NCBI GenBank assembly: GCA_965217865.1
Contig: CBDCJO010000002.1
Span: 4,224,001-4,288,000 of the forward strand
Length of the DNA stretch: 64,000 bases
Direction: 5' to 3'
From: Candidatus Latescibacterota bacterium
GTDB taxonomy: Bacteria; Latescibacterota; UBA2968; SICM01
Each line of letters begins with the position of its first letter. The stretch's first letter is position 1. The position numbers were made by a program, and so were the translations under genes. The notes under the pieces are model-generated. The model worked only from the letters and a program-made list of their open reading frames with translations, ran no database searches and was not told where the DNA came from. Shown one piece after another: positions 31 to 12,473 of this stretch.

Positions 31-132
31 ATGTCATTTAACGTCTTCGCCACTTGCGAACCCGCCACCGGCGGGTTGCCGGAGGCCAAGGCGCGAATGC
101 GCCGCAGCGCAAGTCGCGCTGTTAGAAGATGT
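31..132 (-). other. attC-like hairpin site 1
   Basis: ATGTCATTTAAC...ACTTGCG / CGCAAGT...GTTAGAAGATGT. Confidence 0.85.
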
Positions 133-192
133 GGTATACCCCCATCTATCCAAACTGTAAATCAAATGAAGACTTTACTACGGTTTATAAGC

Positions 193-672
193 TCACCAAG
201 AGTCAAGAAAATTCTTACTGCGCTCGTGAAGTCTGGCGCCTTTCGGCGGCATAAGGAATCTGAACCCAGACTTCTCGTGTGTCTGCCATTTGTATGGAGT
301 ATCGCATCGTGGACACTTGATAGCATTATTCTCCGGTTCGCATCCCCGCATTGTCGCATGGCAGACTTTACAAAACGTCACACAACCGTAGCTATCTATG
401 TCTCGCGATTGTTTCTCGCCAGAGAAATCGTCATGGACAGTCTTGCAATTCAAGCAGACGAATAGCCCATGTCTATCAGGTTTCCTTCCTTCATATTCAC
501 GGAAATACCGCAGTATGGCCTCCTGTGCTTCGATGCTGATTTGACGAAAGGATTTCACTTTGGCTTCGCAGAACTGACATGGAAAGCTAATCCACTCCAC
601 CAGTTTCTTCAGACCAAAAGCAAACACCACCAGTCCCGCGAGGCCAAATCCAATAAGAAGTGCTGGATGCAT
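193..672 (-). CDS. Cassette protein with N-terminal TM helix and four CxxC motifs (zinc-ribbon-like)
   Basis: 159 aa; hydrophobic N-terminus; CQFC, CLNC, CKVC, CPRC. Confidence 0.7.
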   Translation of the reverse strand: MHPALLIGFGLAGLVVFAFGLKKLVEWISFPCQFCEAKVKSFRQISIEAQEAILRYFREYEGRKPDRHGLFVCLNCKTVHDDFSGEKQSRDIDSYGCVTFCKVCHATMRGCEPENNAIKCPRCDTPYKWQTHEKSGFRFLMPPKGARLHERSKNFLDSW

Positions 673-768
673 GGTTCATCTCCAATTTCGGACCTGCAAT
701 TGAGCAGCGACAACGCAGTATATCCCGATCTATTCCGGAGCTATACTAAACAGGTCTCTATCCCTTCC

Positions 769-934
769 ATTTCTTCTAACGTCCGCGCACTTGCGAACTG
801 CCGGCCTGTCCTCCGGAGCTGCGGCCTGTCCTTCCGAAGCTCCGAAGGAGCGAAGGAGGAAGGAGCGAAGGAGGGAGGAAAGTTGGGTCGAGGGCCGTCA
901 GGCCTGAGCCGCAAGTGCAGTTGTTATGGGAAGT
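769..934 (-). other. attC-like hairpin site 2
   Basis: ATTTCTTCTAAC-GTCCGC-GCACTTGCG ... CGCAAGTGC-AGTT-GTTATGGGAAGT. Confidence 0.9.
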
Positions 935-1017
935 TCCAGCCGGCTTCTTGACTATCTTCCCAAAAAGCATCAACTTCAGAATCGGATATTGGGTCTTAAT
1001 TTCAGAAGAGCGATCCT

Positions 1018-1668
1018 ATGGAAGATCTACAATCACTCATTAGACAGACGCGAGAAGGCAATCTCCGCGCATTTGGCTATGTAGTCCGAAGATTTCACGA
1101 CATGGCGGTCGGATACGCCTTCTCCATCCTGAACGATTTTCATTTGGCGGAAGATGTCGCTCAAGAAGCCTTTGTGCAGGCTTTCTCCAGGCTCAGTCAG
1201 CTTACGGCCCGCAGGAAACTGAAGGACATCATCACCAGCAAATTCGATGAGTTGTTGCCAGAAACTTCGCCAACACACACCTATCAAGGAGCCCAGCATA
1301 TGTTCAAAACGATGTTTCCCGAGCTGCACGTATCCGACGTCGAAAAGGCGGCGACCTTTTTCTCAGAGGCGCTTGGTTTCAAAAGAGGATTTACATACGA
1401 GGAGGAGGGGAATCTGGACTTCGTTGTAATGTCCCACGGAGACAAGACCATATACCTCCACCACATGCTTCCTGATGTTGAGTCCGAGCAACCACGTCGG
1501 ATGAGACTCTACTTCCAGCCGTACGACATTGATCGCCTTCACACAGAGCTGAAGTCAAAGGGGTTCCAGGTTTCGCAGCTTGAAGATGAGAGCTACGGGG
1601 CAAGGACGTTCACTCTGAAAGGACCTGACCAGTACGAGATTTGGTTCCAGCAATGGACATCGAACTAG
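1018..1668 (+). CDS. ECF sigma factor fragment (region 2) fused to a VOC/glyoxalase domain
   Basis: GNLRAFGYVVRRF..AEDVAQEAFVQAF, then LHVSDVEKAATFFSEALGF..YGARTFTLKGPD. Most of sigma region 4 is missing. Confidence 0.75.
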   Translation: MEDLQSLIRQTREGNLRAFGYVVRRFHDMAVGYAFSILNDFHLAEDVAQEAFVQAFSRLSQLTARRKLKDIITSKFDELLPETSPTHTYQGAQHMFKTMFPELHVSDVEKAATFFSEALGFKRGFTYEEEGNLDFVVMSHGDKTIYLHHMLPDVESEQPRRMRLYFQPYDIDRLHTELKSKGFQVSQLEDESYGARTFTLKGPDQYEIWFQQWTSN

Positions 1669-1685
1669 AGTTACCTTGGGCTGGA

Positions 1686-1782
1686 ATTTCCCATAACGTC
1701 TCGCGCATGTCCGCAGCGAGGATTTGGGAGGAAGCCGGTGGTTTTCTCCGGCTGTAGCCGGACATGCGCTGTTATATGAAGT
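1686..1782 (-). other. attC-like hairpin site 3
   Basis: ATTTCCCATAAC-GTCTC-GCGCATGTCCG ... CGGACATGCGC-T-GTTATATGAAGT. Confidence 0.9.
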
Positions 1783-1792
1783 TCGACCCCAT

Positions 1793-2539
1793 TCAATTAT
1801 ACTTTGTAGATATTTCATTGTACGATAAATTTCCCCCATAGATGTCAAGGGCAGAACCAACCGTAAAATTGATTTTGCTATTTCCATGCTTCTCTACTAA
1901 TGATATATCATTATATGATTTTATTCCTCCTGCATATGTTGTAGTAATAGGAGAAAATTCACCAAGCATTTTTATCAAATCTACTTCAACGCCTGACATT
2001 TTCCCTTCAACATCAACAGCATGCACTAAAAATTCATCACAATATTCTGATAAAAACAATAAGCAATCTTTATCAATTTTACAGTTTGTGAACTTGCTCC
2101 ACTTGTCGGTCATAATATAATAATCTGTCTCCTTTTTCCTTGAACTCAGATCTAATACAATATTATCTTTTTCAACAACCTTTCGGAGTTTTTTAAGATT
2201 ATTTAGATCAATTTCACCATTATTAAACACAAATGATGTTACAATTATATGTGATGCTCCTTTTGAAATATAATAGTCAGCATTTTCGTCATTAATCCCA
2301 CCGCCAACTTGAAGCCCTTTTGGGAACACTTCAAGGGCCTTTATTACTTGAGATTCATTTCCAGGGCCTAGCATCATAATATGACCGCCATATAGATTGC
2401 TGTTTTTAAACATTGTAGCATAATAGGTTGCTGGTTGAGTAGAAATAAAATTCTGTTTAATTTCATTGTCTTTTAATGTACTGCCAATAATCTGTTTTAC
2501 TAATCCATTATGAAGGTCAATACATGACCTGAATTTCAT
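1793..2539 (-). CDS. hisA: ProFAR isomerase, His6/eukaryotic-type HisA
   Basis: KFRSCIDLHNGLVKQIIG, LQVGGGI, EFLVHAVDVEG, FTVGSALDIYGG; strongly AT-rich. Confidence 0.9.
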   Translation of the reverse strand: MKFRSCIDLHNGLVKQIIGSTLKDNEIKQNFISTQPATYYATMFKNSNLYGGHIMMLGPGNESQVIKALEVFPKGLQVGGGINDENADYYISKGASHIIVTSFVFNNGEIDLNNLKKLRKVVEKDNIVLDLSSRKKETDYYIMTDKWSKFTNCKIDKDCLLFLSEYCDEFLVHAVDVEGKMSGVEVDLIKMLGEFSPITTTYAGGIKSYNDISLVEKHGNSKINFTVGSALDIYGGNLSYNEISTKYN

Positions 2540-2747
2540 TTATCATTACCTATTAGAAATATTATACAATGGGGTCGAATTTCATATCACGTTTCGGCTG
2601 TCCTGAACCGCGAAGCGGTTGGGTCGGAAGGAGCGAAGCGACTGGAGCCAGGAACAGCCTGATATTAATATAAAGGCCCTCGTTGTCAGGAGAGGTTATA
2701 ATTGAGATCCGGATATCTCAATCACCTTTCTCCCACAGGAGGGCCTT

Positions 2748-3791
2748 ATGCAATACGCAAGGATCGACTCGAACTATTTCTGTGGCATCGATCTCCACGC
2801 CAGAACGATGTTTGTCTGCATCATGGACAAGATGGGAGAGATTGTGTTCCAGCGCAACCTGAAAAACGACTTCAAGCTCCTGCTGCAGGTGCTGGAAACT
2901 CACCTCGGTAGCATCGCCGTCGGGGTGGAGTCAACCTTCAACTGGTACTGGCTGGCTGACGGGTGTCACAAGGCCGGGATTCCATTCTACCTGGGACACG
3001 CCCTGTATATGAAGGCGATCCATGGGGGCAAGAAAAAGAACGACCGTCTCGATTCCAGAATGCTGGCTGAGCTGATGCGCTGCAACCTGTTCCCGATGGC
3101 CTATGCCTATCCGCAAGAGATGCGGGCAACCCGGGACCTGCTCCGGCGAAGACACCGGTTTGTGGCCTTACGGGCTGAGTGTTACACCCACATCCAGAAC
3201 ACCTTCTCTCAGCAAGCTATCCTGGATCCTCTCAGCGACCAGGTCAAAAAGAAGAGCAACAGGAGAAAGCTGTGCGAACGTCTGGCCGACCCAGATCTGA
3301 GTATGTCTGTGGACTGCGATCTGGACCTGGTTGACTCCCTGGACAAAATGATCTACAAAGTCGAGAAGCAAGTCTTGGCACAGGCCAAACATCACGATCG
3401 CAATGTCCTGTCTATCCTGATGACGGTTCCCGGACTTGGGGAGATGTTGGCCATGACCATCCTGTATGAAATCCACACGATTGAACGGTTCAAATCCGCT
3501 TCAGCCTTCTCCTCCTACAGCCGGCTGATCAAAGTCGAGAGAGAGTCCGCTGGAAAGAAGACAAAGGACGGGAATAACAAAATCGGCAACCCACACCTAA
3601 AGTGGGCCTTCTCAGAAATCATCCTCGTCGCCCAGCGATGGTCAGAACCGATCAATAGATACTACGAGAAGCTCAAAAGCAAACAAGGTCCGGGAAAAGC
3701 CAAGAGCGTCATCGCTCACAAATTCGGCGTGGCCGCCTACCAAATGCTCAAAAACGGCCAGGCATTCGACGAGAAACGGTTTGTAGCATAA
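2748..3791 (+). CDS. IS110-family transposase/recombinase
   Basis: GIDLH, VGVEST, KKNDRLDS, VPGLG, RESAGK, GNPHLKWAF motifs. Confidence 0.95.
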   Translation: MQYARIDSNYFCGIDLHARTMFVCIMDKMGEIVFQRNLKNDFKLLLQVLETHLGSIAVGVESTFNWYWLADGCHKAGIPFYLGHALYMKAIHGGKKKNDRLDSRMLAELMRCNLFPMAYAYPQEMRATRDLLRRRHRFVALRAECYTHIQNTFSQQAILDPLSDQVKKKSNRRKLCERLADPDLSMSVDCDLDLVDSLDKMIYKVEKQVLAQAKHHDRNVLSILMTVPGLGEMLAMTILYEIHTIERFKSASAFSSYSRLIKVERESAGKKTKDGNNKIGNPHLKWAFSEIILVAQRWSEPINRYYEKLKSKQGPGKAKSVIAHKFGVAAYQMLKNGQAFDEKRFVA

Positions 3792-3792
3792 T

Positions 3793-4260
3793 GGGTGGGG
3801 CGGTTAACCCGGCGCCTAACTGGCAGGGCAACGTCCGGACAATAGCCCAGCTCATCGGCTTGATTGGGAAGCCGCCTTCACCCCTTATTTAGAACATAGA
3901 TGAGCGGATCTGAGACAGTCAGTCCGTCTGCCCCCGCGATGAACCCGAACCTAACTGGCGTTCCCCCTCATAAAAGGGGAGAACAGCCATCCTTCTTGAT
4001 TGGGACTCAAGGGGTACCGATTATTTTCTGGAGGGAGAGGACAATGCCTCTCCCAGGGCGCTCCACAGTATACCGTGAGAGGCGCTTGATTCCCGATACG
4101 TGTTTGGTGCAGATGGCTCACATCTAGCCCGGTTTGTGAAAATCAAGTCAGACCGACGACTGACAAAGATCCGAACATCGCCAAACCTCTTCGGATCGGC
4201 TCATTGCACGCCCCGAACGTTAGGGTCGCAAAAAAACGGTGAAAATCGTGATGGAGGAGT
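3793..4260 (+). ncRNA. Putative bridge/seek RNA of the IS1111 element
   Basis: Structured non-coding region 3' of the transposase. Two stem-closed internal loops share CCTAACTGGC and TTGATTGGGA. Boundaries inferred. Confidence 0.7.
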
Positions 4261-4366
4261 CTTTTTTTCTTGACCCGGGGCCTTTAATATGTGTTATGTG
4301 TCTGTGGCAGTTTTGCGATGAGTCAAAACAATAAAGGGGACACCATCAACTTCCCTGGTTTTTCTT

Positions 4367-4888
4367 TTAATCTATCACAATTCTCAGTAGGGTTTCAAAA
4401 CGCTTCTCCATATAGTGGACCTCAGGTGCATCTTCTCTTGGCCCCAAATCCTTCCATCCATACTTCAAATAAAATCTCGCCGCAACAGCATTCGACGGAC
4501 TGACATTAAGTCGGGCTCTCTTACATCCAAGCTGTTTAAAAAATAATCCTACATGCTTGTCGAGCAAATAACCCATACCTTTCTCTCGATATTCCGGAAT
4601 CAGATAATAGAGGTTGACATATCCTACAGCGGGGTCAATCCTCCATCTGCCCATCTCGATCTGACCAATGATCTTATCATCCTTCCAGACGTGGATACAG
4701 CTATTAGGAATCTCACCCATGCGCTGTCTGAGCCAGTTAATATATCTTTCGGCTCCTTTTCCATCGACCTCATGGAATCTCTCTGCCGATCCGAAACTGC
4801 AGATGTAAGAATCCTCTCTGAACTTGATGCACAAATCGGCATGTCGCTCCAAATCAATAGGAATGAAATCCAGATGGTCAACCTTCAT
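4367..4888 (-). CDS. GNAT-family N-acetyltransferase
   Basis: YLIPEYREKGMG and NAVAARFYLKYGW motifs. Confidence 0.9.
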   Translation of the reverse strand: MKVDHLDFIPIDLERHADLCIKFREDSYICSFGSAERFHEVDGKGAERYINWLRQRMGEIPNSCIHVWKDDKIIGQIEMGRWRIDPAVGYVNLYYLIPEYREKGMGYLLDKHVGLFFKQLGCKRARLNVSPSNAVAARFYLKYGWKDLGPREDAPEVHYMEKRFETLLRIVID

Positions 4889-5037
4889 ACTTTTGTTCCT
4901 ACGACTATAAAATGGTCTTATTCACTGTCGAACAGGCATATCTGAATATCAAGATCGAATTGTGGCAAACCGGGCAAGGATGATGGGAGAACTGATTTTG
5001 TCCCCCTTGTGTTTTTCAGATCGACCCCAAAACTGCC

Positions 5038-5176
5038 ATTGCACATAACGTCTGAACACTCCCGAAGGGGCCGTGTATCGGAAAAGGAAGCAGTGTTTTT
5101 TGCCATCAGCCAATGAATCAGTCACGGCCCTTTTGACCGAGCGCAGCGAGTCGGGAGTGGGTTGTTAAATGCTGGT
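5038..5176 (-). other. attC-like hairpin site 5
   Basis: ATTGCACATAAC..CACTCCCGA..GGGGCCGTG / CACGGCCCC..TCGGGAGTG..GTTAAATGC. Confidence 0.9.
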
Positions 5177-5256
5177 GGCGCGCCCCCTTCACGGCGAAGC
5201 CCTAAACGGGGCGGAAATACAGCGCACCCCTTCACCTTGTTTTCCCTACTTCGATC

Positions 5257-5856
5257 CTAATCCAACTTCTCCCTCGCAATCTCCACAATCCGGCCTCGCA
5301 CCACCTGTACGTCCTGTTCTCGAACTGTCCCCAGAGATCCTATCTCATCTCGAATCAGGCCTGCCACACGCTCCGTCACATTCTGGAAAATTCGATCCTG
5401 CACGGCCTGGCTAGCCCCATTCAGCGCAACTGCCAAATCTCTCGTATTCAGCTCACGTAGCATCCCTTGTATTTCCCGGTCGCTCAAATTTATAAGATCC
5501 TCAAACGTGTTCACCTCACGTATCCGTTCCGATAACCGACTTACCTGCTCCATCTCTTCGGCCGAAAGCGACCAGTCGAACACATCCATATTCTCTTTCA
5601 GATGCCCCTCTGAACTCGCCTTGGGAATCACCACCATCCCCTGCTGCACCAACCACCGCAGTCCCACCTGCCCGGGGGTCTTACTGTGGCACTGGCCAAT
5701 ATTGATCAGAGCAGGCTCTCCCAGAATGCGACCCCTTCCTAACGGCGTATGTGCTGTCACCACCACGTTGTGTTCTCGACACCATCGCAACACGTCCCGC
5801 TTCTCCTCCCCGGGATGGTACCTGATCTGGTTCACGCTAATGGGTACCTCGCTAAC
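5257..5856 (-). pseudogene. 5'-truncated aldo/keto reductase fused to a FliG C-terminal domain
   Basis: NQIRYHP..TAHTPLGRG..QVGLRWLVQQG..IPKASS..LKENMDVFDW, then TFEDLINLSDREIQGMLRE. The AKR N-terminal half is absent. Confidence 0.8.
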
Positions 5857-6016
5857 GTCCGAAGCTGCGCTTTGCCCACCATAGCTTCCATGGCCACCGA
5901 AGCTTCCCTGGCCACCGAAGCGTCAGCGAAGGTGGCAGAGTAGGTGGGCAGCAGCGGAGGAGGAAGTGGGTTGGTGCGGAGCGTAGCGGAGCCGTGAGCC
6001 ACATGTTAAATGCAGT
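5845..6016 (-). other. attC-like site 6, chimeric or degenerate
   Basis: Right half nearly identical to that of site 10; centre shared with site 8; left arm does not pair with right arm. Confidence 0.65.
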
Positions 6017-6075
6017 GCAGGTTTAGCATGCACATTACCTGACGGGGCAAATCTTTGACTCTGCGTTGAAGAAAA

Positions 6076-7401
6076 CTACCCTTCCTTCGGTTTCTTGAAC
6101 CACCACGTGGCTTCAAGGTGTTTTGGAGGAGGGGGGTGGGGCAGCGGGATCCAGGCCCCGACATCCACATCAGGACCCGTAGTCCCAGAGGGCCGGATAT
6201 CATCAGACGGACTCCCGTCTCCGGAATACTTGATATATAGCTTTAGAAATTTCGTCTTTTGTGTAACAACATCAGTTCCAAGGAAATTGCGGATCGGGAA
6301 GAAAAGCTTTACCCGTGCCTCACGTGGGGAATATGTATAAGCTCCTGTTGATTCCTCAAGGGAATCGGTACCGGGAGATAAGCGCCACCCTTTCCTCCAG
6401 ACGATCTCTCCTGTATGGCGGACCTGCATTGGTTCGTGAGGCCGAACGATACCCATCTCCTCTACTTCAATGGGCTCATAGGCAGTTCCCTCATTGTCCT
6501 CCAAATAAATGGTCCAGTTCTTCAACGAAAGAAAAGAGGGCGCGTAAGGTGTTCTCACCTTAAGGCGGATGAAAATGGCGTTCTCAATCCGGTTTTTCGA
6601 CCAGTAAGCCTCACGGATCGTAGATAAGTTCCGACCCTTTGGATTGTAGTATTTGCAGATATGGTGGACTTCTGCCTCGACCAGGTCGGGCGACATCAGG
6701 GTGGCGGCCACGGTGAGGGGTGAACGAACAAGACGATTCTCCAGCCCTGGCCCATGCTTTCCACGGGTCGGCTGCCATAAATCGTCTGTAATGTGCGACT
6801 CACCTCGCAGGGGATCGTTTAAGGGCGCGTACGTTCTAACTATCCAAGTCTTCAGGAGGTCGGAGTAGGACTTCGACTGATCCTGCTTCTGGGGCTTGGT
6901 AAAACTGACATAGTAAACATCCGTTTGATTTGGTTCGTGCAGCCCAGCCCAGGTGTCAATGTAACAGAAAGGCATCTTTTGGTTAAACCGAAGGTCCAAC
7001 AGGCGATCCTTGCGTTTCGTCATATCATCCAGACGGTCCTGCTGCCGGCTGTCGAGACTTCCTCTGAAGTTGTTCAAGACTCTGTCGACTTCTGCGATTG
7101 CTTTCTTCTTTCTATCCCTTACCTCGTTGAGGTCTCCACTCATCCCTTTCCAGATAGCTGCTTCAGATGTCATCCTCGCATAGTCCCACTCGAAGGCCTT
7201 CAAAGTATTTCGGATCTGGGAAATCTTCCACCTTGCTGAATCCTGTTGCGCTGGGGATAGCTTTAGTTTCTTTGTGAGCTTTCGAAGGTCCAACAGATCT
7301 TCCGGTCCTCGACCATGACCATAGGCAACCAAAGCCGGAAAAATGATACAGAGCGCCACAAAGAACCGAGGCCAATGTGTGGTAGTACTTTTTCTCACCA
7401 T
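6076..7401 (-). CDS. Secreted hypothetical protein (cassette)
   Basis: 441 aa ORF; signal-peptide-like N-terminus; helical LKLSPAQQ segment. Confidence 0.75.
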   Translation of the reverse strand: MVRKSTTTHWPRFFVALCIIFPALVAYGHGRGPEDLLDLRKLTKKLKLSPAQQDSARWKISQIRNTLKAFEWDYARMTSEAAIWKGMSGDLNEVRDRKKKAIAEVDRVLNNFRGSLDSRQQDRLDDMTKRKDRLLDLRFNQKMPFCYIDTWAGLHEPNQTDVYYVSFTKPQKQDQSKSYSDLLKTWIVRTYAPLNDPLRGESHITDDLWQPTRGKHGPGLENRLVRSPLTVAATLMSPDLVEAEVHHICKYYNPKGRNLSTIREAYWSKNRIENAIFIRLKVRTPYAPSFLSLKNWTIYLEDNEGTAYEPIEVEEMGIVRPHEPMQVRHTGEIVWRKGWRLSPGTDSLEESTGAYTYSPREARVKLFFPIRNFLGTDVVTQKTKFLKLYIKYSGDGSPSDDIRPSGTTGPDVDVGAWIPLPHPPPPKHLEATWWFKKPKEG

Positions 7402-7435
7402 TCCCCCCTACCCTTGCTGTAGGTTGAATACCTGC

Positions 7436-7584
7436 ATTGCATTTAATGTTCAGGGTTGCAGAAGTGGCCGTGCATTGGTAAAGATAAAAAAGTTTTACAG
7501 GAAAGTATAAAAGAAAAACCTACGGCCATTTTTGGGGTGGGTGGAAGGTGAGGTGGGGAACTGCAACCCGGTGTTAGACGCCGC
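7436..7584 (-). other. attC-like hairpin site 7
   Basis: ATTGCATTTAAT-GTTCA-GGGTTGCAG ... CTGCAACCC-GGT-GTTAGAC. Confidence 0.85.
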
Positions 7585-7858
7585 GGGCTCCGCTTTTCAC
7601 ATCCTCATGATTTATTTAAGAGAGGCCTCAGTTCCCTTCGCGTTTCCACGGCAGTGCGCTTTGCTCAACGGCTTTTCGGACATTACCGAGCCAAATTGGC
7701 CATAACCAATCCGTCTCGCACCCGAGGGGCAGATACTTCTTGTCAATAATGTGCTTCTGCTCGCGGTCAACTTTGGCTTGGACATAGCGTTCAACCTGAG
7801 AGAAGGGAATCCACGCATAGGGTCCACTCTCAAAGTAGGATCTGTCATTTTTAGGTGT

Positions 7859-8059
7859 TCAAAGGCGACGGTGAGGAGCGCAGAACAGCATTTCGACACC
7901 ATTCCACATCCTCTCGCGGTCGGAGGTCAATCGGACATCAAGCTCGACGGCATCCACGCCAAGGTCAATTGCACGCTGAAAAGCTTGAATAGTATTCTCA
8001 GGTGCTTCACCAGGAGCACCTCTATGAGCTACGATCTCGAATTGATCCACTTTCTCCAA
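7859..8059 (-). pseudogene. Glycerophosphodiester phosphodiesterase N-terminal fragment
   Basis: [35 protein letters not shown], then similarity is lost and the frame stops early. Confidence 0.8.
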
Positions 8060-8128
8060 GGCCGCTGTTTAATAACCGTTTATGAATTGCTCCCCCCCTT
8101 GCCCACTCTCGAATTACCACAAACCCTC

Positions 8129-8306
8129 ATTTCGCCTAACGATTTCGCCGTGCCCGAACCGGCGGCTTGTCCACCGAAGCGGCGTCTTACCCACCGTAGC
8201 TTCCCTGGCCACCGAAGCGTCAGCGAAGGTGGGCAGCCGCGAAGGTGGAAGCCGGTTGGGCGAAGGGCGTAAGCCCGTAGCCGGGCACGGACGTGTTATG
8301 CGGCGT
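8129..8306 (-). other. attC-like hairpin site 8
   Basis: ATTTCGCCTAAC..CCGTGCCCG / CGGGCACGG..GTTATGCGGCGT. Confidence 0.85.
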
Positions 8307-8335
8307 TAGCTTCCTCTCGTTCATCACAAGGGAAA

Positions 8336-8917
8336 TTAAGAATCCAACATTTTCCTCAAGTGCTGCAATACCAGTGTATCTCGTTTAGTCCAAAGCGGCG
8401 GATTCGCGGTCGGCGAATTAAGTAGAGCCGAGTTTTTCTGGATCGCATCATCGATTGTTACCCAGGTAGGAGTAAACTCCAGATCCTCTTCGTATTGATC
8501 CAAGGTTTGCTCTCCGAGCGTCGGCTCTACGTCACAGAGATAATAGTGGGATCTCATCTTAAAAACGTCGTAGTCTGCATCAGAAGCCGGACCGTAGGTT
8601 ACCATCTTTCCATAAGCACCACGAACAGCCGTAACCTTTGTCCCACACTCTTCACGTATTTCTCGAACAAGTGCCTCTTCGTGCGTCTCGCCAGACTCAA
8701 TGCCACCACCTGGAAACTTGAAATCGCCATTCTTGGGAGAGAATACCATCAGCAACTCACATTCACGAAGAATAATGCCCCGTACCGCATCTCTCAGACA
8801 TGTCCGACCACTGAGATCTAGGTCTTCCGGCCGAATCAGTTTTCCAATAACTTGCATATCGTATAACTCTTTAGTGATGTGATCGCGAGTTGATGCTACC
8901 AGAGGTTGATGAGTCAA
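8336..8917 (-). CDS. NUDIX hydrolase
   Basis: Nudix box GGGIESGETHEEALVREIREECG; start may be the downstream ATG. Confidence 0.9.
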   Translation of the reverse strand: MTHQPLVASTRDHITKELYDMQVIGKLIRPEDLDLSGRTCLRDAVRGIILRECELLMVFSPKNGDFKFPGGGIESGETHEEALVREIREECGTKVTAVRGAYGKMVTYGPASDADYDVFKMRSHYYLCDVEPTLGEQTLDQYEEDLEFTPTWVTIDDAIQKNSALLNSPTANPPLWTKRDTLVLQHLRKMLDS

Positions 8918-8932
8918 CTAAGTCTCTAACTA

Positions 8933-9040
8933 ATGCCGCATAACGTTCGTGGATCTCTAAACCCGCCCGTGTTTTTTTGGCGGGTTGCCGAAGGCCGAAC
9001 GACCGAAGGGAGTGAGCAGAGATCCATTGTTATAGGATGT
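8933..9040 (-). other. attC-like hairpin site 9
   Basis: ATGCCGCATAAC-GTTCG-TGGATCTCT ... AGAGATCCA-TT-GTTATAGGATGT. Confidence 0.9.
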
Positions 9041-9219
9041 GCCAGCCCGGGGTGGGGTAGGGGCTTGCCAAGAACGGAAAGCTTCGGAGAATCTTCAAGA
9101 CGCAGATAGCATATCTCCTGGAGCATATGTCTCCACAGGGCCTCCTTCGCTACATCCAGCCCCCCTCATGTCCTGGTTAAACAGCGATCTCAGCCTGGGC
9201 TCTCCGAGGTTGCCTACAG

Positions 9220-9870
9220 TCAATATAGGACATTGAGCTTCTGCTCAACAATATGGGGGTTGTCACCGCTTTGAATCGACTTGATGCCCTCAAGGACTTT
9301 CCGATATTTCACCTTCTGTTCATGTAGCAAAGACTCCATCCAGGTGCTAAGAATTGCCTGAACCAGTTCTGGTTCCGTTCCATCCACGGCTAGCCGAACA
9401 GCCGTAGTCAAAAACTTATCGCCCGGGCTTTGCACCATATTTTCCAACGTCATGATGCCTTCTCTCCGAGCTATCTCGGCAAACCCGACAAACAGCCTGT
9501 TAATCTCATCGGAACCGAGCTCAGAGAGCGGACGCTTGATGGTGGTTCTTATCGCCCGTTTCGTAGCGAGGTATTTCTTCCCAAGCTTGGGCTTTTTAAG
9601 TTGCCTTACAGTTTTCACGATGGACAACTGCACATCCTCCACATCGCGCATTGGAATCGGATCGGAAATTTCCATTTCCTCTCTGACCATCGTCCGCACA
9701 CGCTTCGACATATTGCCAAATATTCGACCTTTCAGCTCCTTTGTCGCACCTTTCAGTGCAACAGCCAGGTCTTTCGTGTCCACCTCCCGTAGCATCAGCT
9801 GGATCTCCCGATCCGTTAGTTTCGAGAGATCGTCAAAGGTGATTTCATGGGTTGCTTGCGTCGCTGACAT
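9220..9870 (-). CDS. FliG C-terminal domain fused to a MotA-like cytoplasmic domain
   Basis: RBS AAGGAGG before ATG 9870; TFDDLSKLTDREIQLMLREVD..LAVALKGA; IARREGIMTLE..FL..AVDGTEPELV; IQSGDNP..KL. Confidence 0.8.
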   Translation of the reverse strand: MSATQATHEITFDDLSKLTDREIQLMLREVDTKDLAVALKGATKELKGRIFGNMSKRVRTMVREEMEISDPIPMRDVEDVQLSIVKTVRQLKKPKLGKKYLATKRAIRTTIKRPLSELGSDEINRLFVGFAEIARREGIMTLENMVQSPGDKFLTTAVRLAVDGTEPELVQAILSTWMESLLHEQKVKYRKVLEGIKSIQSGDNPHIVEQKLNVLY

Positions 9871-9936
9871 GATTATGTCCTCCTTATGAGTCGTTAAGGG
9901 TGGTCTGGGATGGCCGCCTCTTGTTTTTGGGCTGGC

Positions 9937-10025
9937 ATTTCCTATAACGTTCAGTGGCTCACGAACCCGCGCCAGCGGGTTGGTGCGGAGCGCAGCGGAG
10001 CCGTGAGCCACATGTTATGAGAAGT
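9937..10025 (-). other. attC-like hairpin site 10
   Basis: ATTTCCTATAAC-GTTCA-GTGGCTCACG ... CGTGAGCCAC-AT-GTTATGAGAAGT. Confidence 0.9.
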
Positions 10026-10054
10026 GCTGCCCGAAGATACTTCCACAGCATCGC

Positions 10055-11031
10055 TCATCGAGCACCGAGGGACGCATATCCGCTTCGCTCCCAAATCTGC
10101 TCTGGGGGGTACTTGTAGAAGTCCAGCCAGGAGTCCTTCCCGTGCCGATTCGTGTATGCCTCACAGAGTCGGAATCCCAAAAAGTAGGCAAGTCGATCGA
10201 CGGCGCCGTCCCAAGGATAGACGTGCCACTGGTGGAACTTGCTTATCGTCTCCCAATCACATGAGCCGAGATCCGGAACCGCAGCTGACACTACCTCCCG
10301 CTCATGGGCTAGTGCCCATTTCCACGCTTCCTCGCTGAACGATATATGCTTCGGCGAAGAGCCGCGTCCCTCCCAGCATATCCGGTTCAGAAAGCAGCAG
10401 AATCCTTCCTCCACTATCGACCTGACGAGTGTTATCGGAACTGAGGGATGAGCCGTGTTGTAGACTTGATGGTTCAGCTCGTGCGGCAGCATGAACCTGA
10501 AATGCTCTTCCGGCTTTTCCCCAAGATTGGACAGATTTGCCCACATCGTACCTTGGGTCCCTCCAAGATCTCCGCCAGCCAAGTAAACCAGGTACCAGTC
10601 CCCATGGGGCTTGCGTCCCGTGGTCCGAATGAATATCTCAGCAACCTCGCTGAACATATCGGTGAAATTGAGCCGGAAAGGGAGTTGGAAGGCCGGGTTC
10701 CCGACATCAGAGATCTCGGGAATCCCCGTTTCGGCCCACTGGCGGAGGTTTTCCTCCCTGGGGAAGAGAAACTGCCATAGGTGAGGTGAATGGCCGGTAG
10801 GTGTCTACGACGAACTGGTGTGTTCGTCGAGCGAGGTCCTGACCATCAGTTCGCGCCACGGAGAGGATCTGCTCTTTCCAGACGTGGATGAGCCTCAGGC
10901 CGGTATTCGGAATGAATTCCTCAACTGCCGGCGATGCTTCCAGAATCCGGGTAGCTTCCTGCAGGCTCTGTGGAATCTGTGGTGCCAATGCCAGAACCTC
11001 ACTTTGGAGTCAGCAGTATGGGTTTGCTCAT
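10055..11031 (-). pseudogene. Frameshifted putative Zn-dependent protease (DUF2268-like)
   Basis: PHELNHQ..EEG..AYFLGF motifs; split over ORFs 10707-10988 and 10055-10657. Confidence 0.6.
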
Positions 11032-11043
11032 TTCACGGGCAGC

Positions 11044-11073
11044 ATTTCTCATAACTTACGGTATTCCTGAACT
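11044..11073. other. Terminal dif-like simple site of the array
   Basis: ATTTCTCATAA-CTTACGGT-ATTCCTGAACT; left arm 9/11 to the E. coli XerD arm; no hairpin follows. Confidence 0.5.
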
Positions 11074-11576
11074 CCTACGCAGATTCCATCATTTCGGCAC
11101 ATCTCCCGCCCTTCGCAGATACCTCCCCACGAAGAACCAACCCGTATATGTTCGTAGATCCCTTGTTATTAGGAGAAATCGTTTTAGGACGAACCCACCT
11201 TTGACAATTACATTATACTATCCAGAGCACTCTGAATCTTTCCGATATTTCGGGTTGTGACCCTGGGATAGATTTCGGTGGTCTTAGAACTCTTATCCTA
11301 ACAATTCTTGAATATAACGCAAATCCGTTCCACGTTCAAGCAAAGGCGCCTTCGAAACCCTGGCCTTTGGACGCTCCACACAGAATTTGGACACTCAGAA
11401 GCATTCAGGTCTTTATCGCATAAAAATAAACACACTTGCACGAACCCGGTCCATTTCCGTTGCAATTTAAGAGGGGTTTTCGCCAATCTCAATACGGACG
11501 CGAGTTTTGGTGGTAACCCCTCGTTTGTCATTGCTATGGATCGACTTTTGAGTTAGTATCCCTTTGTATAATTTTA

Positions 11577-12473
11577 GGTGATTGAGTAGATATTGGCACC
11601 AGCGTATATTAATAATATGCTGGTAATTAATCCACTTAAGTTAGCAAATGACTGCAAGATAAGTAGGGCCTATTTTCGTGCAGCCCGTTGGGGTGGAAAA
11701 AGGCGATGTCCAAGCTGCGATTATCAGCGCAGGTTGCCCTTATTAAAAGACGATCGGTTCAGGTGTTCACGGTGTGGATATCGGTTTAAAGATTTCACGG
11801 GCACTTATCTTGAAAGGCTTCGAATTTCATTTGACGAGCTTGCCCATTTACTTTATCTGTTTGTATTGGGAGTGCCCTCTTACCGATCCAGGCACTACCT
11901 GTCCGTATCGCTGAAAACGGCTCAGCGGATTTATACCACGTTTCGCCAGGCCATCTACGATCATAGCTTTACGGACCAGGTGCTTTGGGGTGAGATCGAG
12001 TTGGACGAGGCGATGTATGGAGGTCATCATAAGGGTAAGCGTGGATGGGGAGCAGCCGGAAAACACTTGGTTTTCGGGCTTTATCAGAGGAACGGAAAAG
12101 TCCTCACCTTTCCCATTCCGGATCGAAGTCGAAACACCCTTACACCGCTTGTGACCTCACACACCAAAGCAGGCAGTCTATACTACACCGATGACTGGCA
12201 CGCCTACACTTGGCTGTCAGTCAAAGGTGACCACGTGGTTGTTCGAAAAGAAGAAGGGGTGCCCAAAGGCAAAGGCCGACATCACATCAATGGCATCGAA
12301 GGCTTCTGGAGTTTTTCTAAAAATTGGCTATATCAATACAGAGGAATCCCTCGACATCATTTCCATTTATACCTGAAGGAAACAGAGTTCAGATTCAACC
12401 AGGAAGACGAGGATCTCTTCCCAATTATTGCTTCATATCTGGTGAATCTGGTACCAATATCTTCCTAATTACC
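11577..12473 (+). mobile_element. IS1595-family insertion sequence
   Basis: Imperfect terminal IRs GGTGATTGAGTAGATATTGGCACC / GGTACCAATATCTTCCTAATTACC; 8-bp TSD TAATTTTA (11569-11576, 12474-12481). Confidence 0.95.
11617..12468 (+). CDS. IS1595-family transposase
   Basis: CPSC/CSRC zinc ribbon, EIELDE, YTDDW, HINGIEGFWS. Confidence 0.95.
   Translation: MLVINPLKLANDCKISRAYFRAARWGGKRRCPSCDYQRRLPLLKDDRFRCSRCGYRFKDFTGTYLERLRISFDELAHLLYLFVLGVPSYRSRHYLSVSLKTAQRIYTTFRQAIYDHSFTDQVLWGEIELDEAMYGGHHKGKRGWGAAGKHLVFGLYQRNGKVLTFPIPDRSRNTLTPLVTSHTKAGSLYYTDDWHAYTWLSVKGDHVVVRKEEGVPKGKGRHHINGIEGFWSFSKNWLYQYRGIPRHHFHLYLKETEFRFNQEDEDLFPIIASYLVNLVPISS

Follow-up and report, generated by a model that had tools for sequence, protein, structure and literature searches.

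A decayed integron-type cassette array ending at an attI-like junction beside a remnant of an I2-less tyrosine recombinase gene in a Latescibacterota genome

Which recombinase gathered the cassettes of an array whose genome has no canonical integron integrase (IntI) that could be found? The question is raised by a stretch of 64,000 nucleotides (hereafter, the window), positions 4224001-4288000 of contig C2 (CBDCJO010000002.1) in the assembly GCA_965217865.1 of a Candidatus Latescibacterota bacterium, which comprises 6.43 Mb in two contigs, is 96% complete, and has a G+C content of 0.55. The segment 36-11343 of the window is probably best described as an integron-type array of ten cassettes that ends at an attI-like junction, next to the stump of a gene for a tyrosine recombinase without the I2 region, the insertion specific to IntI; its cassettes are predicted to have been moved by recombinases of this I2-less family. 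The window holds a real, albeit decayed, member of an integron-like system in which both the enzyme and the site geometry differ from those of classical integrons. In the first-pass annotation of this DNA, the array had been regarded as integrase-less, with sites resembling folded dif sites and with cassettes possibly stacked by the host XerCD or by an unlinked non-IntI tyrosine recombinase.

The array and its hairpin sites

The plus strand between positions 36 and 10020 carries ten long imperfect palindromes of 79 to 168 nt each (S1 to S10), which, together with a half-site at the right end, partition the stretch into ten units with one gene per unit; nine of the ten genes are on the minus strand. 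Leftward, the array runs beyond the window, to at least C2:4223258. A strict site detector, which requires a TAAC...GTTA pair closing a stem in which 9 or more of 10 positions are paired, accepted seven sites in the window and one just to the left of it, that is, eight sites in 11.8 kb. The chance level, estimated by local shuffles, is about 20 matches of this type per 5.77 Mb, or ∼0.04 in 11 kb, so the earlier report of hairpin sites dividing ten single-gene units is confirmed far above chance. The stems are unlike in sequence among the sites, each still being paired at 9 or more of 10 positions. A loose version of the detector gave 41 matches across C2 compared to ∼20 expected by chance, and for this reason scattered single sites elsewhere in the genome were not counted. 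The G+C content of the cassette genes spans 0.317 to 0.562, compared to 0.55 for the genome. The absence of a canonical intI gene was borne out both for the window and for the whole genome, in which none of the 12 matches to the integron integrase model TIGR02249 reaches the cut-off. With two or more attC-type sites spaced less than 4 kb from each other and no IntI found nearby, the stretch has the makeup of a cluster of attC sites lacking an integron integrase (CALIN).

On the plus strand, the sites share the layout 5'-[ATTTC]-NNN-TAAC, 3 to 5 unpaired nt (consensus GTYYC), stem, variable centre, stem, GTTA-NNN-[GAAGT]. The pairing of ATTTC-NNN-TAAC with GTTA-NNN-GAAGT bears out the previous remark that the boxes exceed the classical 7 bp. 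The stems are 9 to 11 bp long and perfect or near-perfect, and the bulge is one-sided, with 3 to 5 nt on the cleaved arm, where it adjoins the AAC box, versus 0 to 3 nt on the opposite arm; among the eight sites that were folded, these values are 3 to 4 nt and 0 to 2 nt. The same bulge polarity is seen in 25 sites located downstream of related recombinase genes in other phyla. No extrahelical bases were found in these eight sites, all of which have uninterrupted stems. TAAC is conserved in 8 of the 10 sites and GTTA in all ten; the damaged sites are S4 (TCAC, with an insertion sequence), S7 (TAAT), and S6 (a hybrid). The hexamer TGATAT was considered as a compensating right box of S4 and rejected, as it represents the left end of the insertion sequence. 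These hairpins are attC-type sites, with boxes NNNTAAC and GTTANNN, and not dif sites.

Folding of the eight clean sites as DNA resulted in a summed energy of -222.5 kcal/mol for the plus strand versus -204.2 kcal/mol for the minus strand. The plus strand is the more stable one in seven of these eight sites, is G-rich in seven, and forms 20 G-T pairs over the whole set, compared to 8 for the minus strand. The same asymmetry in energy and G-T pairing, with 5'-RYYYAAC at the cleaved R' box, has been described for the recombined “bottom” strand of attC sites (Nivina et al., PMC5027507; here and below, papers cited by PMC number are represented by the accessible parts of their texts). The plus strand is the folding “bottom” strand: from this asymmetry and the minus-strand location of nine of the ten genes, it follows that the cassettes run right to left and, hence, that a site and the gene to the right of it form one unit. 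With respect to replication, the plus strand would be the lagging-strand template, a point that is not leaned upon here, as the cumulative GC skew is weak, with a minimum near 2.93 Mb and a maximum near 5.43 Mb, ∼1.2 Mb from the array.

The ten 11-mers that had been quoted as recombinase arms are all present, starting at positions 31, 769, 1687, 2580, 5038, 7436, 8129, 8933, 9937, and 11044, and the arithmetic of three 9/11 matches to the XerD arm is right for the arm as quoted in the first-pass annotation. They are real but are not Xer arms: each consists of the 7-nt AAC box and four conserved flanking bases. The second 11-mer, ending in GAAC or GAAG and previously likened to a XerC arm, is found in 7 of the 10 sites, with GAA[C/G] located 21 to 23 nt from the box start and ∼17 nt from the AAC box. 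However, it repeats the AAC box in direct, not inverted, orientation and, rather than being a XerC arm, spans the point where the stem gives way to the variable loop. At the same offset, GAA[C/G] occurs in just 5 of 32 sites in the arrays of other organisms, so it was rejected as a family-wide second arm; it could represent a lineage-specific second binding site. GAA[C/G] opens an inner hairpin, GAACCCGC...GCGGGTTG, and the attI-like core at 11055-11075 has the same TAAC-N13-GAAC spacing as the sites. As to the resemblance to folded dif sites, the stems do mimic a plain duplex, as in the CTX phage, but the sites are long hairpins with AAC/GTT cores instead of 28-bp dif-like sequences.

The attI-like junction and the I2-less recombinases

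The half-site at 11049-11055 (junction box TCATAAC, plus strand) is not a broken hairpin. At least nine further copies of the segment 11050-11345, with 83 to 89% identity, are present in the genome. In the alignment of the ten copies of this module, the conservation starts exactly at TAAC in 10 of 10, and the DNA to the left is unrelated, which is what an insertion site that takes varied cassettes should look like; accordingly, the crossover would fall between A11054 and C11055. From the junction, the conserved segment spans ∼160 nt to the recombinase stop codon in all ten copies. In the window, this attI-like segment (11055-11210, minus strand) is followed by the 3' remnant of the recombinase gene (11211-11343, minus strand; ∼45 codons in two frames), which is co-oriented with the cassettes and points into the array. 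The description of the array as integrase-less therefore did not hold. A bona fide intI or attI next to the array had been named in advance as an argument against Xer-type cassettes; an attI-like site and a recombinase remnant do adjoin the array, but this recombinase is not a bona fide IntI. The attI-like core GTTCAGGAATACCGTAAGTTA next to the junction is also kept, at the same distance past a homologous gene, in a member of another genus (G028). The far side of the stump consists of unrelated DNA and an IS1595-family transposase gene (11593-12468, plus strand), located just past the truncated recombinase gene.

The sole long copy of the recombinase gene in this genome, at C2:1657175-1658351, precedes the same attI-like segment; it is frameshifted by a single base and altered at one near-invariant residue. 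In addition to window positions 11050-11345, attI-like copies are located near C2 positions 1657014, 1789436, 1982760, 1990081, 2034701, 3496379, 3803306, 4801585, and 4999635. The genome contains at least ten such heads, with recombinase stumps of differing lengths and, in most cases, zero to three cassette sites on the array side. For sedentary integrons, a single platform per genome is the usual condition. A promoter consensus scan of the platform module detected one promoter-like site, compared to 0.7 expected.

The relatives of this recombinase comprise 771 proteins at E <= 0.001, of which the intact ones are 365 to 390 aa long; one of these (P0001, 368 aa) is nearly identical to the copy encoded in this genome. 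The SAM-like and catalytic domains, as well as the Phage_integrase domain, are found in 55 of 55 aligned members, and the catalytic residues R224, K249, H314, R317, H340, and Y349 are invariant across an alignment of ten intact members. The best NCBIfam model is TIGR02249 (“integron integrase”), which scores 212 to 232 bits in five of five intact members tested, compared to the cut-off of 265 bits, with matches in two stretches that skip profile positions 181-234. In the alignment with VchIntIA (2a3v), query residues 266-286 (21 residues) replace residues 177-239 of the chain (63 residues), so the IntI-specific insertion (I2 region) is absent. The predicted structure (mean predicted local distance difference test score, 86) has a core that fits XerA (Z scores of 21.2 and 20.5) and VchIntIA (Z score of 19.1). 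The family also has an extra N-terminal domain of ∼90 aa, in which modeled residues 11-81 appear to fit the N-terminal domain of T4 UvsW, with a Z score of 7.8 and a root mean square deviation of 1.8 Å over 62 residues. The Pfam HARP domain is matched by 16 of the 55 members, in all cases under the curated cut-off. The N-terminal domain of UvsW and the HARP domains are related fork-binding modules.

A tree of 27 sequences, which included 10 IntI genes from the phylum, 14 members of the I2-less family, and 3 host Xer-like proteins, united IntI and the I2-less family in one group (100/100), apart from the Xer-like proteins. In this small sample, IntI is monophyletic and is placed beside or within an I2-less grade. 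The closest kin of the integron integrases are the intact members of this family.

The association of this family with arrays was examined at 61 of 80 loci of relatives in species genomes; the 19 others, mostly on short contigs, were omitted regardless of the result. At the 23 loci where the N-terminal domain is matched, the sites with the expected polarity numbered 25 downstream of the gene (in 110.9 kb) versus 2 upstream (in 198.5 kb), and those of the opposite polarity numbered 1 on each side. At the 38 other loci, 13 expected-polarity sites were found downstream (in 304.1 kb), mostly at a single Ignavibacteriota locus, versus 3 upstream (in 277.6 kb), with 4 opposite-polarity sites on either side. 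Clear arrays past the gene are present in metagenome-assembled genomes from Gemmatimonadaceae (7 sites) and Ignavibacteriota (∼10 sites), two Flavobacterium genomes, and Algibacter; G028, which belongs to the same class as the host, has an array of 3 sites past the gene. The strict detector gave no matches on eight flanks of four canonical intI genes, and a fold-based scan of those flanks found two classical sites, with two-arm spacers (4/4 nt and 3/2 nt) and a one-base bulge. The contrast with the window-type sites fits the claim, albeit weakly, as a control with an n of 2 is thin. The two classical-looking attC sites, both near canonical IntI genes of the same class, are at L133 10117-10213 (G078) and L134 13663-13723 (G039), and both recombinase types are encoded in G011 and G039; thus, the two types of sites and of recombinases coexist in this lineage.

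The cassettes are discrete mobile units bounded at AAC triplets. Cassette c (1697-2589, minus strand), which consists of S3 and a HisF-like gene (1793-2539) with a G+C content of 0.317, has a 98% identical copy at C2:370.6-373.2 kb. The homology extends from ATAAC of S3 to ATA[A/C]AC of S4, and the outer DNA is unrelated on both sides. The second copy has ATATAAC where S4 in the window has ATATCAC, so the latter box represents a mutated TAAC. Further evidence comes from public sequencing runs: 18 runs from nine studies contain a part of 4293-11400, and only six of these contain half or more of it; none of the 18 is listed as an RNA run. In a contig from run X9, which belongs to another study (985 nt, depth 20), position 9943 is joined to 11051, with 5 letters shared and 1107 nt missing; the missing DNA is exactly cassette j, from ATAAC of S10 to ATAAC of the junction. 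Loose ends of contigs with differing continuations pile up at 8128/8129 in four of four runs and are also seen at 8298-8307 and 9945 in two to three runs; at both S8 boxes, many contigs diverge in four runs. Other joints, among them those linking 7401 to 8294 (separated by AACA) and 5043 to 11052 (separated by GG), as well as several backward ones between similar sites, were set aside as having no ready explanation or as reflecting site similarity. Runs X8 and X9 leave parts of 4293-5003 and 10218-10928 uncovered, which is no evidence of absence.

Cassette contents and insertion sequences

From left to right, site S1 (36-127; boxes ATTTAAC ... GTTAGAA), an attC-like hairpin on the plus strand like all the sites that follow, precedes the cassette a gene (193-672), which encodes a 159-aa protein without a Pfam family and, like all other cassette genes save one, is located on the minus strand. 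The exception is the cassette b gene (1018-1668, plus strand), which follows S2 (774-929; TTCTAAC ... GTTATGG) and combines a glyoxalase/bleomycin-resistance fold with a fragment of the sigma-70 region 2. Site S3 (1691-1777; CCATAAC ... GTTATAT) forms part of cassette c. Site S4 is split into a left part (2584-2659), with the point-mutated box ATATCAC, and the right box GTTATGT (4293-4299); the cassette d gene (4367-4888) codes for a GNAT acetyltransferase. Site S5 (5043-5170; ACATAAC ... GTTAAAT) is followed by the cassette e gene (5257-5835), a chimera of a C-terminal fragment of an aldo/keto reductase and a FliG_C domain, and by the hybrid site S6 (5850-6011), in which the left part is S8-like and the right half is 95 to 98% identical to that of S10. 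This fusion next to a hybrid site suggests an illegitimate site-by-site deletion.

The cassette f gene (6076-7401) codes for a 441-aa protein without a Pfam family; its 5' part has a 92% identical partial copy at C2:3151796-3152203. Site S7 (7441-7579; ATTTAAT ... GTTAGAC, with the core AAC mutated to AAT) precedes cassette g, in which a glycerophosphodiester phosphodiesterase gene (7612-8059) occupies two overlapping frames and looks frameshifted. Site S8 (8134-8301; GCCTAAC ... GTTATGC) is followed by the cassette h gene for a NUDIX hydrolase (8336-8917), and S9 (8938-9035; GCATAAC ... GTTATAG) is followed by the cassette i gene for a protein with a FliG_C domain (9220-9870). In both cassettes e and i, this domain is found outside any flagellar context. 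Cassette j (9948-11054, minus strand), the attI-proximal one, consists of S10 (9942-10020; CTATAAC ... GTTATGA) and a DUF2268-like gene in two frames (10055-10988). The split phosphodiesterase and DUF2268-like genes, along with the frameshifted recombinase gene, suggest that the array is decaying or that the assembly contains indel errors. The cassettes had been described as unrelated and as carrying single genes, which requires correction: e and i share the FliG_C domain, S6 is a hybrid of two sites, and cassette d contains a 1.6-kb IS110-family element.

This insertion sequence (2660-4292, plus strand; transposase gene 2748-3791) lies inside S4, directly before the GTTA box. It encodes the DEDD_Tnp_IS110 (PF01548) and Transposase_20 (PF02371) domains and is present in at least 12 copies in the genome. 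In nine of nine full copies, the right end abuts a GTTA box and the left end comes after the 3' half of the stem. One copy occupies a site identical to the empty S3 of the window, and filled and empty versions of one site were compared. Members of the IS1111 family that target one end of attC sites are known, such as ISKpn4 and ISPst6 (the “IS1111-attC group”; PMC11187229). The element in S4 is similar to these in that it inserts at one fixed end of a hairpin site and differs in that it targets sites without extrahelical bases in a noncanonical system.

Outside the array, three detector matches of the opposite polarity are found within 22 kb just to the right of the window (C2:4294570-4316538) and are possibly another small array that faces in the other direction; the chance rate of the detector is high. 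To the left of the window, C2:4216207-4218528 (L010 10207-12528) contains a gene for an ANT/AadA-like nucleotidyltransferase, with NTP_transf_2 and AadA_C parts, interrupted by a gene for a 466-aa DUF772/DDE transposase. The far end of the array, at L010 15025-16425, carries an identical transposase gene in inverted orientation.

Competing explanations and comparison with known systems

In the proposed mechanism, the recombinase would bind the folded plus (“bottom”) strand of a site, cleave it between A and C of the 5' box (NNNTAA|C), and exchange it with the attI-like site, so that new cassettes would enter next to the recombinase gene, with replication resolving the product as in integrons. 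The one-sided bulge of 3 to 5 nt by the cleaved box may take the role in strand choice that is played in classical integrons by extrahelical bases and the I2 helix, and the N-terminal UvsW/HARP-like domain may help in recognizing branched or folded DNA.

An ordinary CALIN would offer a simpler account, in which the array is a classical one whose IntI is no longer present or works in trans or from incoming DNA, and the I2-less recombinase is a bystander. Canonical IntI is encoded in 17 of the 168 genomes of the phylum, including G001 from the same family, so an IntI acting in trans, or since lost, has to be reckoned with. The cores are of the classical AAC/GTT type, some attC sites can do without extrahelical bases when recombined by IntI1 (PMC5027507), and CALINs are common (PMC9668308). 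This account nevertheless appears unlikely. IntI was not found in a genome that is 96% complete; the junction is ∼160 nt past the stop codon of the I2-less gene in all ten copies and in another genus; and same-polarity arrays follow intact I2-less genes in several phyla. The sites also lack the extrahelical bases or symmetric spacer of the two canonical-IntI sites from the same class, a weak argument at an n of 2. A role of the host XerC/XerD, with folded sites acting as dif mimics, is still harder to accept. The whole-genome search did find a XerD protein over the curated cut-off (366.8 versus 329.6 bits) and a XerC-like gene, both unlinked to the array; the box is ∼11 to 13 bp long, and the stems, similarly to the CTX-phage site used by XerCD, have no extrahelical bases (PMC4792948). 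However, there are no two inverted 11-bp arms around a 6- to 8-bp spacer, the second “arm” is lineage specific, the array is far from the (weak) GC-skew maximum, the arrays are physically linked to the gene for a dedicated recombinase that has an attI-like site of its own, and the tree sets the host Xer proteins apart from the array-linked family. The first-pass annotation was right in that a non-IntI recombinase is the best candidate, whereas this candidate is neither XerCD nor unlinked, its gene being directly upstream.

The least credible option, very improbable on the present evidence, is that the hairpins are intergenic palindromes, such as terminators or sequences similar to repetitive extragenic palindromes (REP), between ordinary genes, and that no site-specific recombination is involved. 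Long G+C-rich hairpins after genes can indeed serve as terminators, and the IS110-family element targets these hairpins, as some IS1111 members target REP sequences (PMC11187229). Against it, the AAC/GTT boxes are conserved, and homology breaks at them in the duplicated cassette, the ten module copies, and the population variant; the cassette genes vary widely in G+C content relative to the genome; and the same layout is found past the recombinase gene in other phyla.

Several observations weigh against attributing the array to the I2-less family. Recombination of these sites by the family is a prediction from sequence. All recombinase copies in this genome are stumps or frameshifted, so any activity here would be historical or supplied from elsewhere, and the platform is likely dead in this genome. 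The association statistic comes from our own detector, which sees only sites with uninterrupted stems; of the 23 loci with the N-terminal domain, just 5 show two downstream sites or more, and little DNA is available downstream at many of the loci. No downstream array was found at five of the seven loci of class-level homologs (G029, G027, G011, and two loci in G007), which matched residues 94-368 only, and the G036 locus gave mixed site polarities. The UvsW/HARP-like match of the modeled N-terminal domain is modest. Finally, with 16 differences from the window among the 119 letters of its attI-like part, the X9 contig may come from a paralogous platform; its joint falls at the boxes whichever platform it comes from.

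A broader possibility, put forward only tentatively and rather less likely than the attribution itself, is that these arrays represent a second, functional kind of integron, with an I2-less sister or even ancestral form of the enzyme that would read plain hairpins with a one-sided bulge via its fork-binding N-terminal domain, the I2 helix and extrahelical bases being a later refinement rather than a prerequisite for capturing cassettes as single strands. In the integron literature, recombination of folded single-strand attC sites is viewed as having arisen once the I2 helix, the element gripping extrahelical bases, was acquired (PMC4792948 and PMC7790495), IntegronFinder-based surveys define IntI by its insertion (PMC9668308), and few complete integrons have been reported in Bacteroidetes (PMC9024848). 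Full-text literature searches, which did not extend to subscription journals or supplements, turned up no account of attC arrays headed by a recombinase that lacks the insertion. The I2-less family heads cassette arrays in several phyla, with matching sites that have no extrahelical bases. Should the family be active, many “CALINs” would turn out not to be orphans, the capture of genes by integron-type systems would extend further than surveys report, e.g., in Bacteroidota, Gemmatimonadota, and Ignavibacteriota, and the order of steps from a Xer-like protein to IntI would be directly testable with natural proteins. The window contributes evidence, from nature, that cassettes move exactly at the box boundaries, namely, the exact-boundary duplication and the attI-proximal population variant, along with a site-targeting insertion sequence and at least ten platform heads in one genome, and it supplies ready substrates in S3, S10, and the attI-like segment.

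Among the known systems, the pdif modules of Acinetobacter plasmids are gene modules bounded by short duplex XerC/XerD sites in alternating orientation, with no IntI. The window array is similar in consisting of gene modules bounded by recombinase sites without IntI and differs in having 79- to 168-nt hairpins in one orientation and a linked recombinase. The CTX phage, an integrative mobile element exploiting Xer, likewise relies on a single-strand hairpin with a duplex-like stem without extrahelical bases and on a recombinase, XerCD, without I2-like elements (Escudero et al., PMC4792948). Unlike it, the sites described here have no dif-like 28-bp core, the recombinase is a dedicated and linked one, and the cargo is made up of gene cassette arrays instead of a phage genome. 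By definition, IntegronFinder would probably file this stretch as a CALIN, a category taken to comprise headless relics served by IntI in trans, whereas here the head is present and belongs to a non-IntI family. The closest likeness is to sedentary integrons, particularly the co-oriented ones, such as the “reverse orientation” IntI of Spirochaetota and the archaeal integrons with attI directly downstream of intI (PMC9668308). Shared with these are the recombinase gene followed by an attI-type junction and mostly single-gene co-oriented cassettes, the imperfect palindromes with RYYYAAC/GTTRRRY-type boxes, the crossover at AAC, and a bottom strand that folds better and is richer in G-T pairs. 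In contrast, the recombinase family described here has no I2 region and has an extra N-terminal domain of ∼90 aa; the boxes extend to ∼12 nt; instead of a 5- to 6-nt spacer per arm and extrahelical bases (PMC5027507), the sites have a one-sided bulge of 3 to 5 nt and no extrahelical bases; and a single genome carries at least ten attI-like heads.

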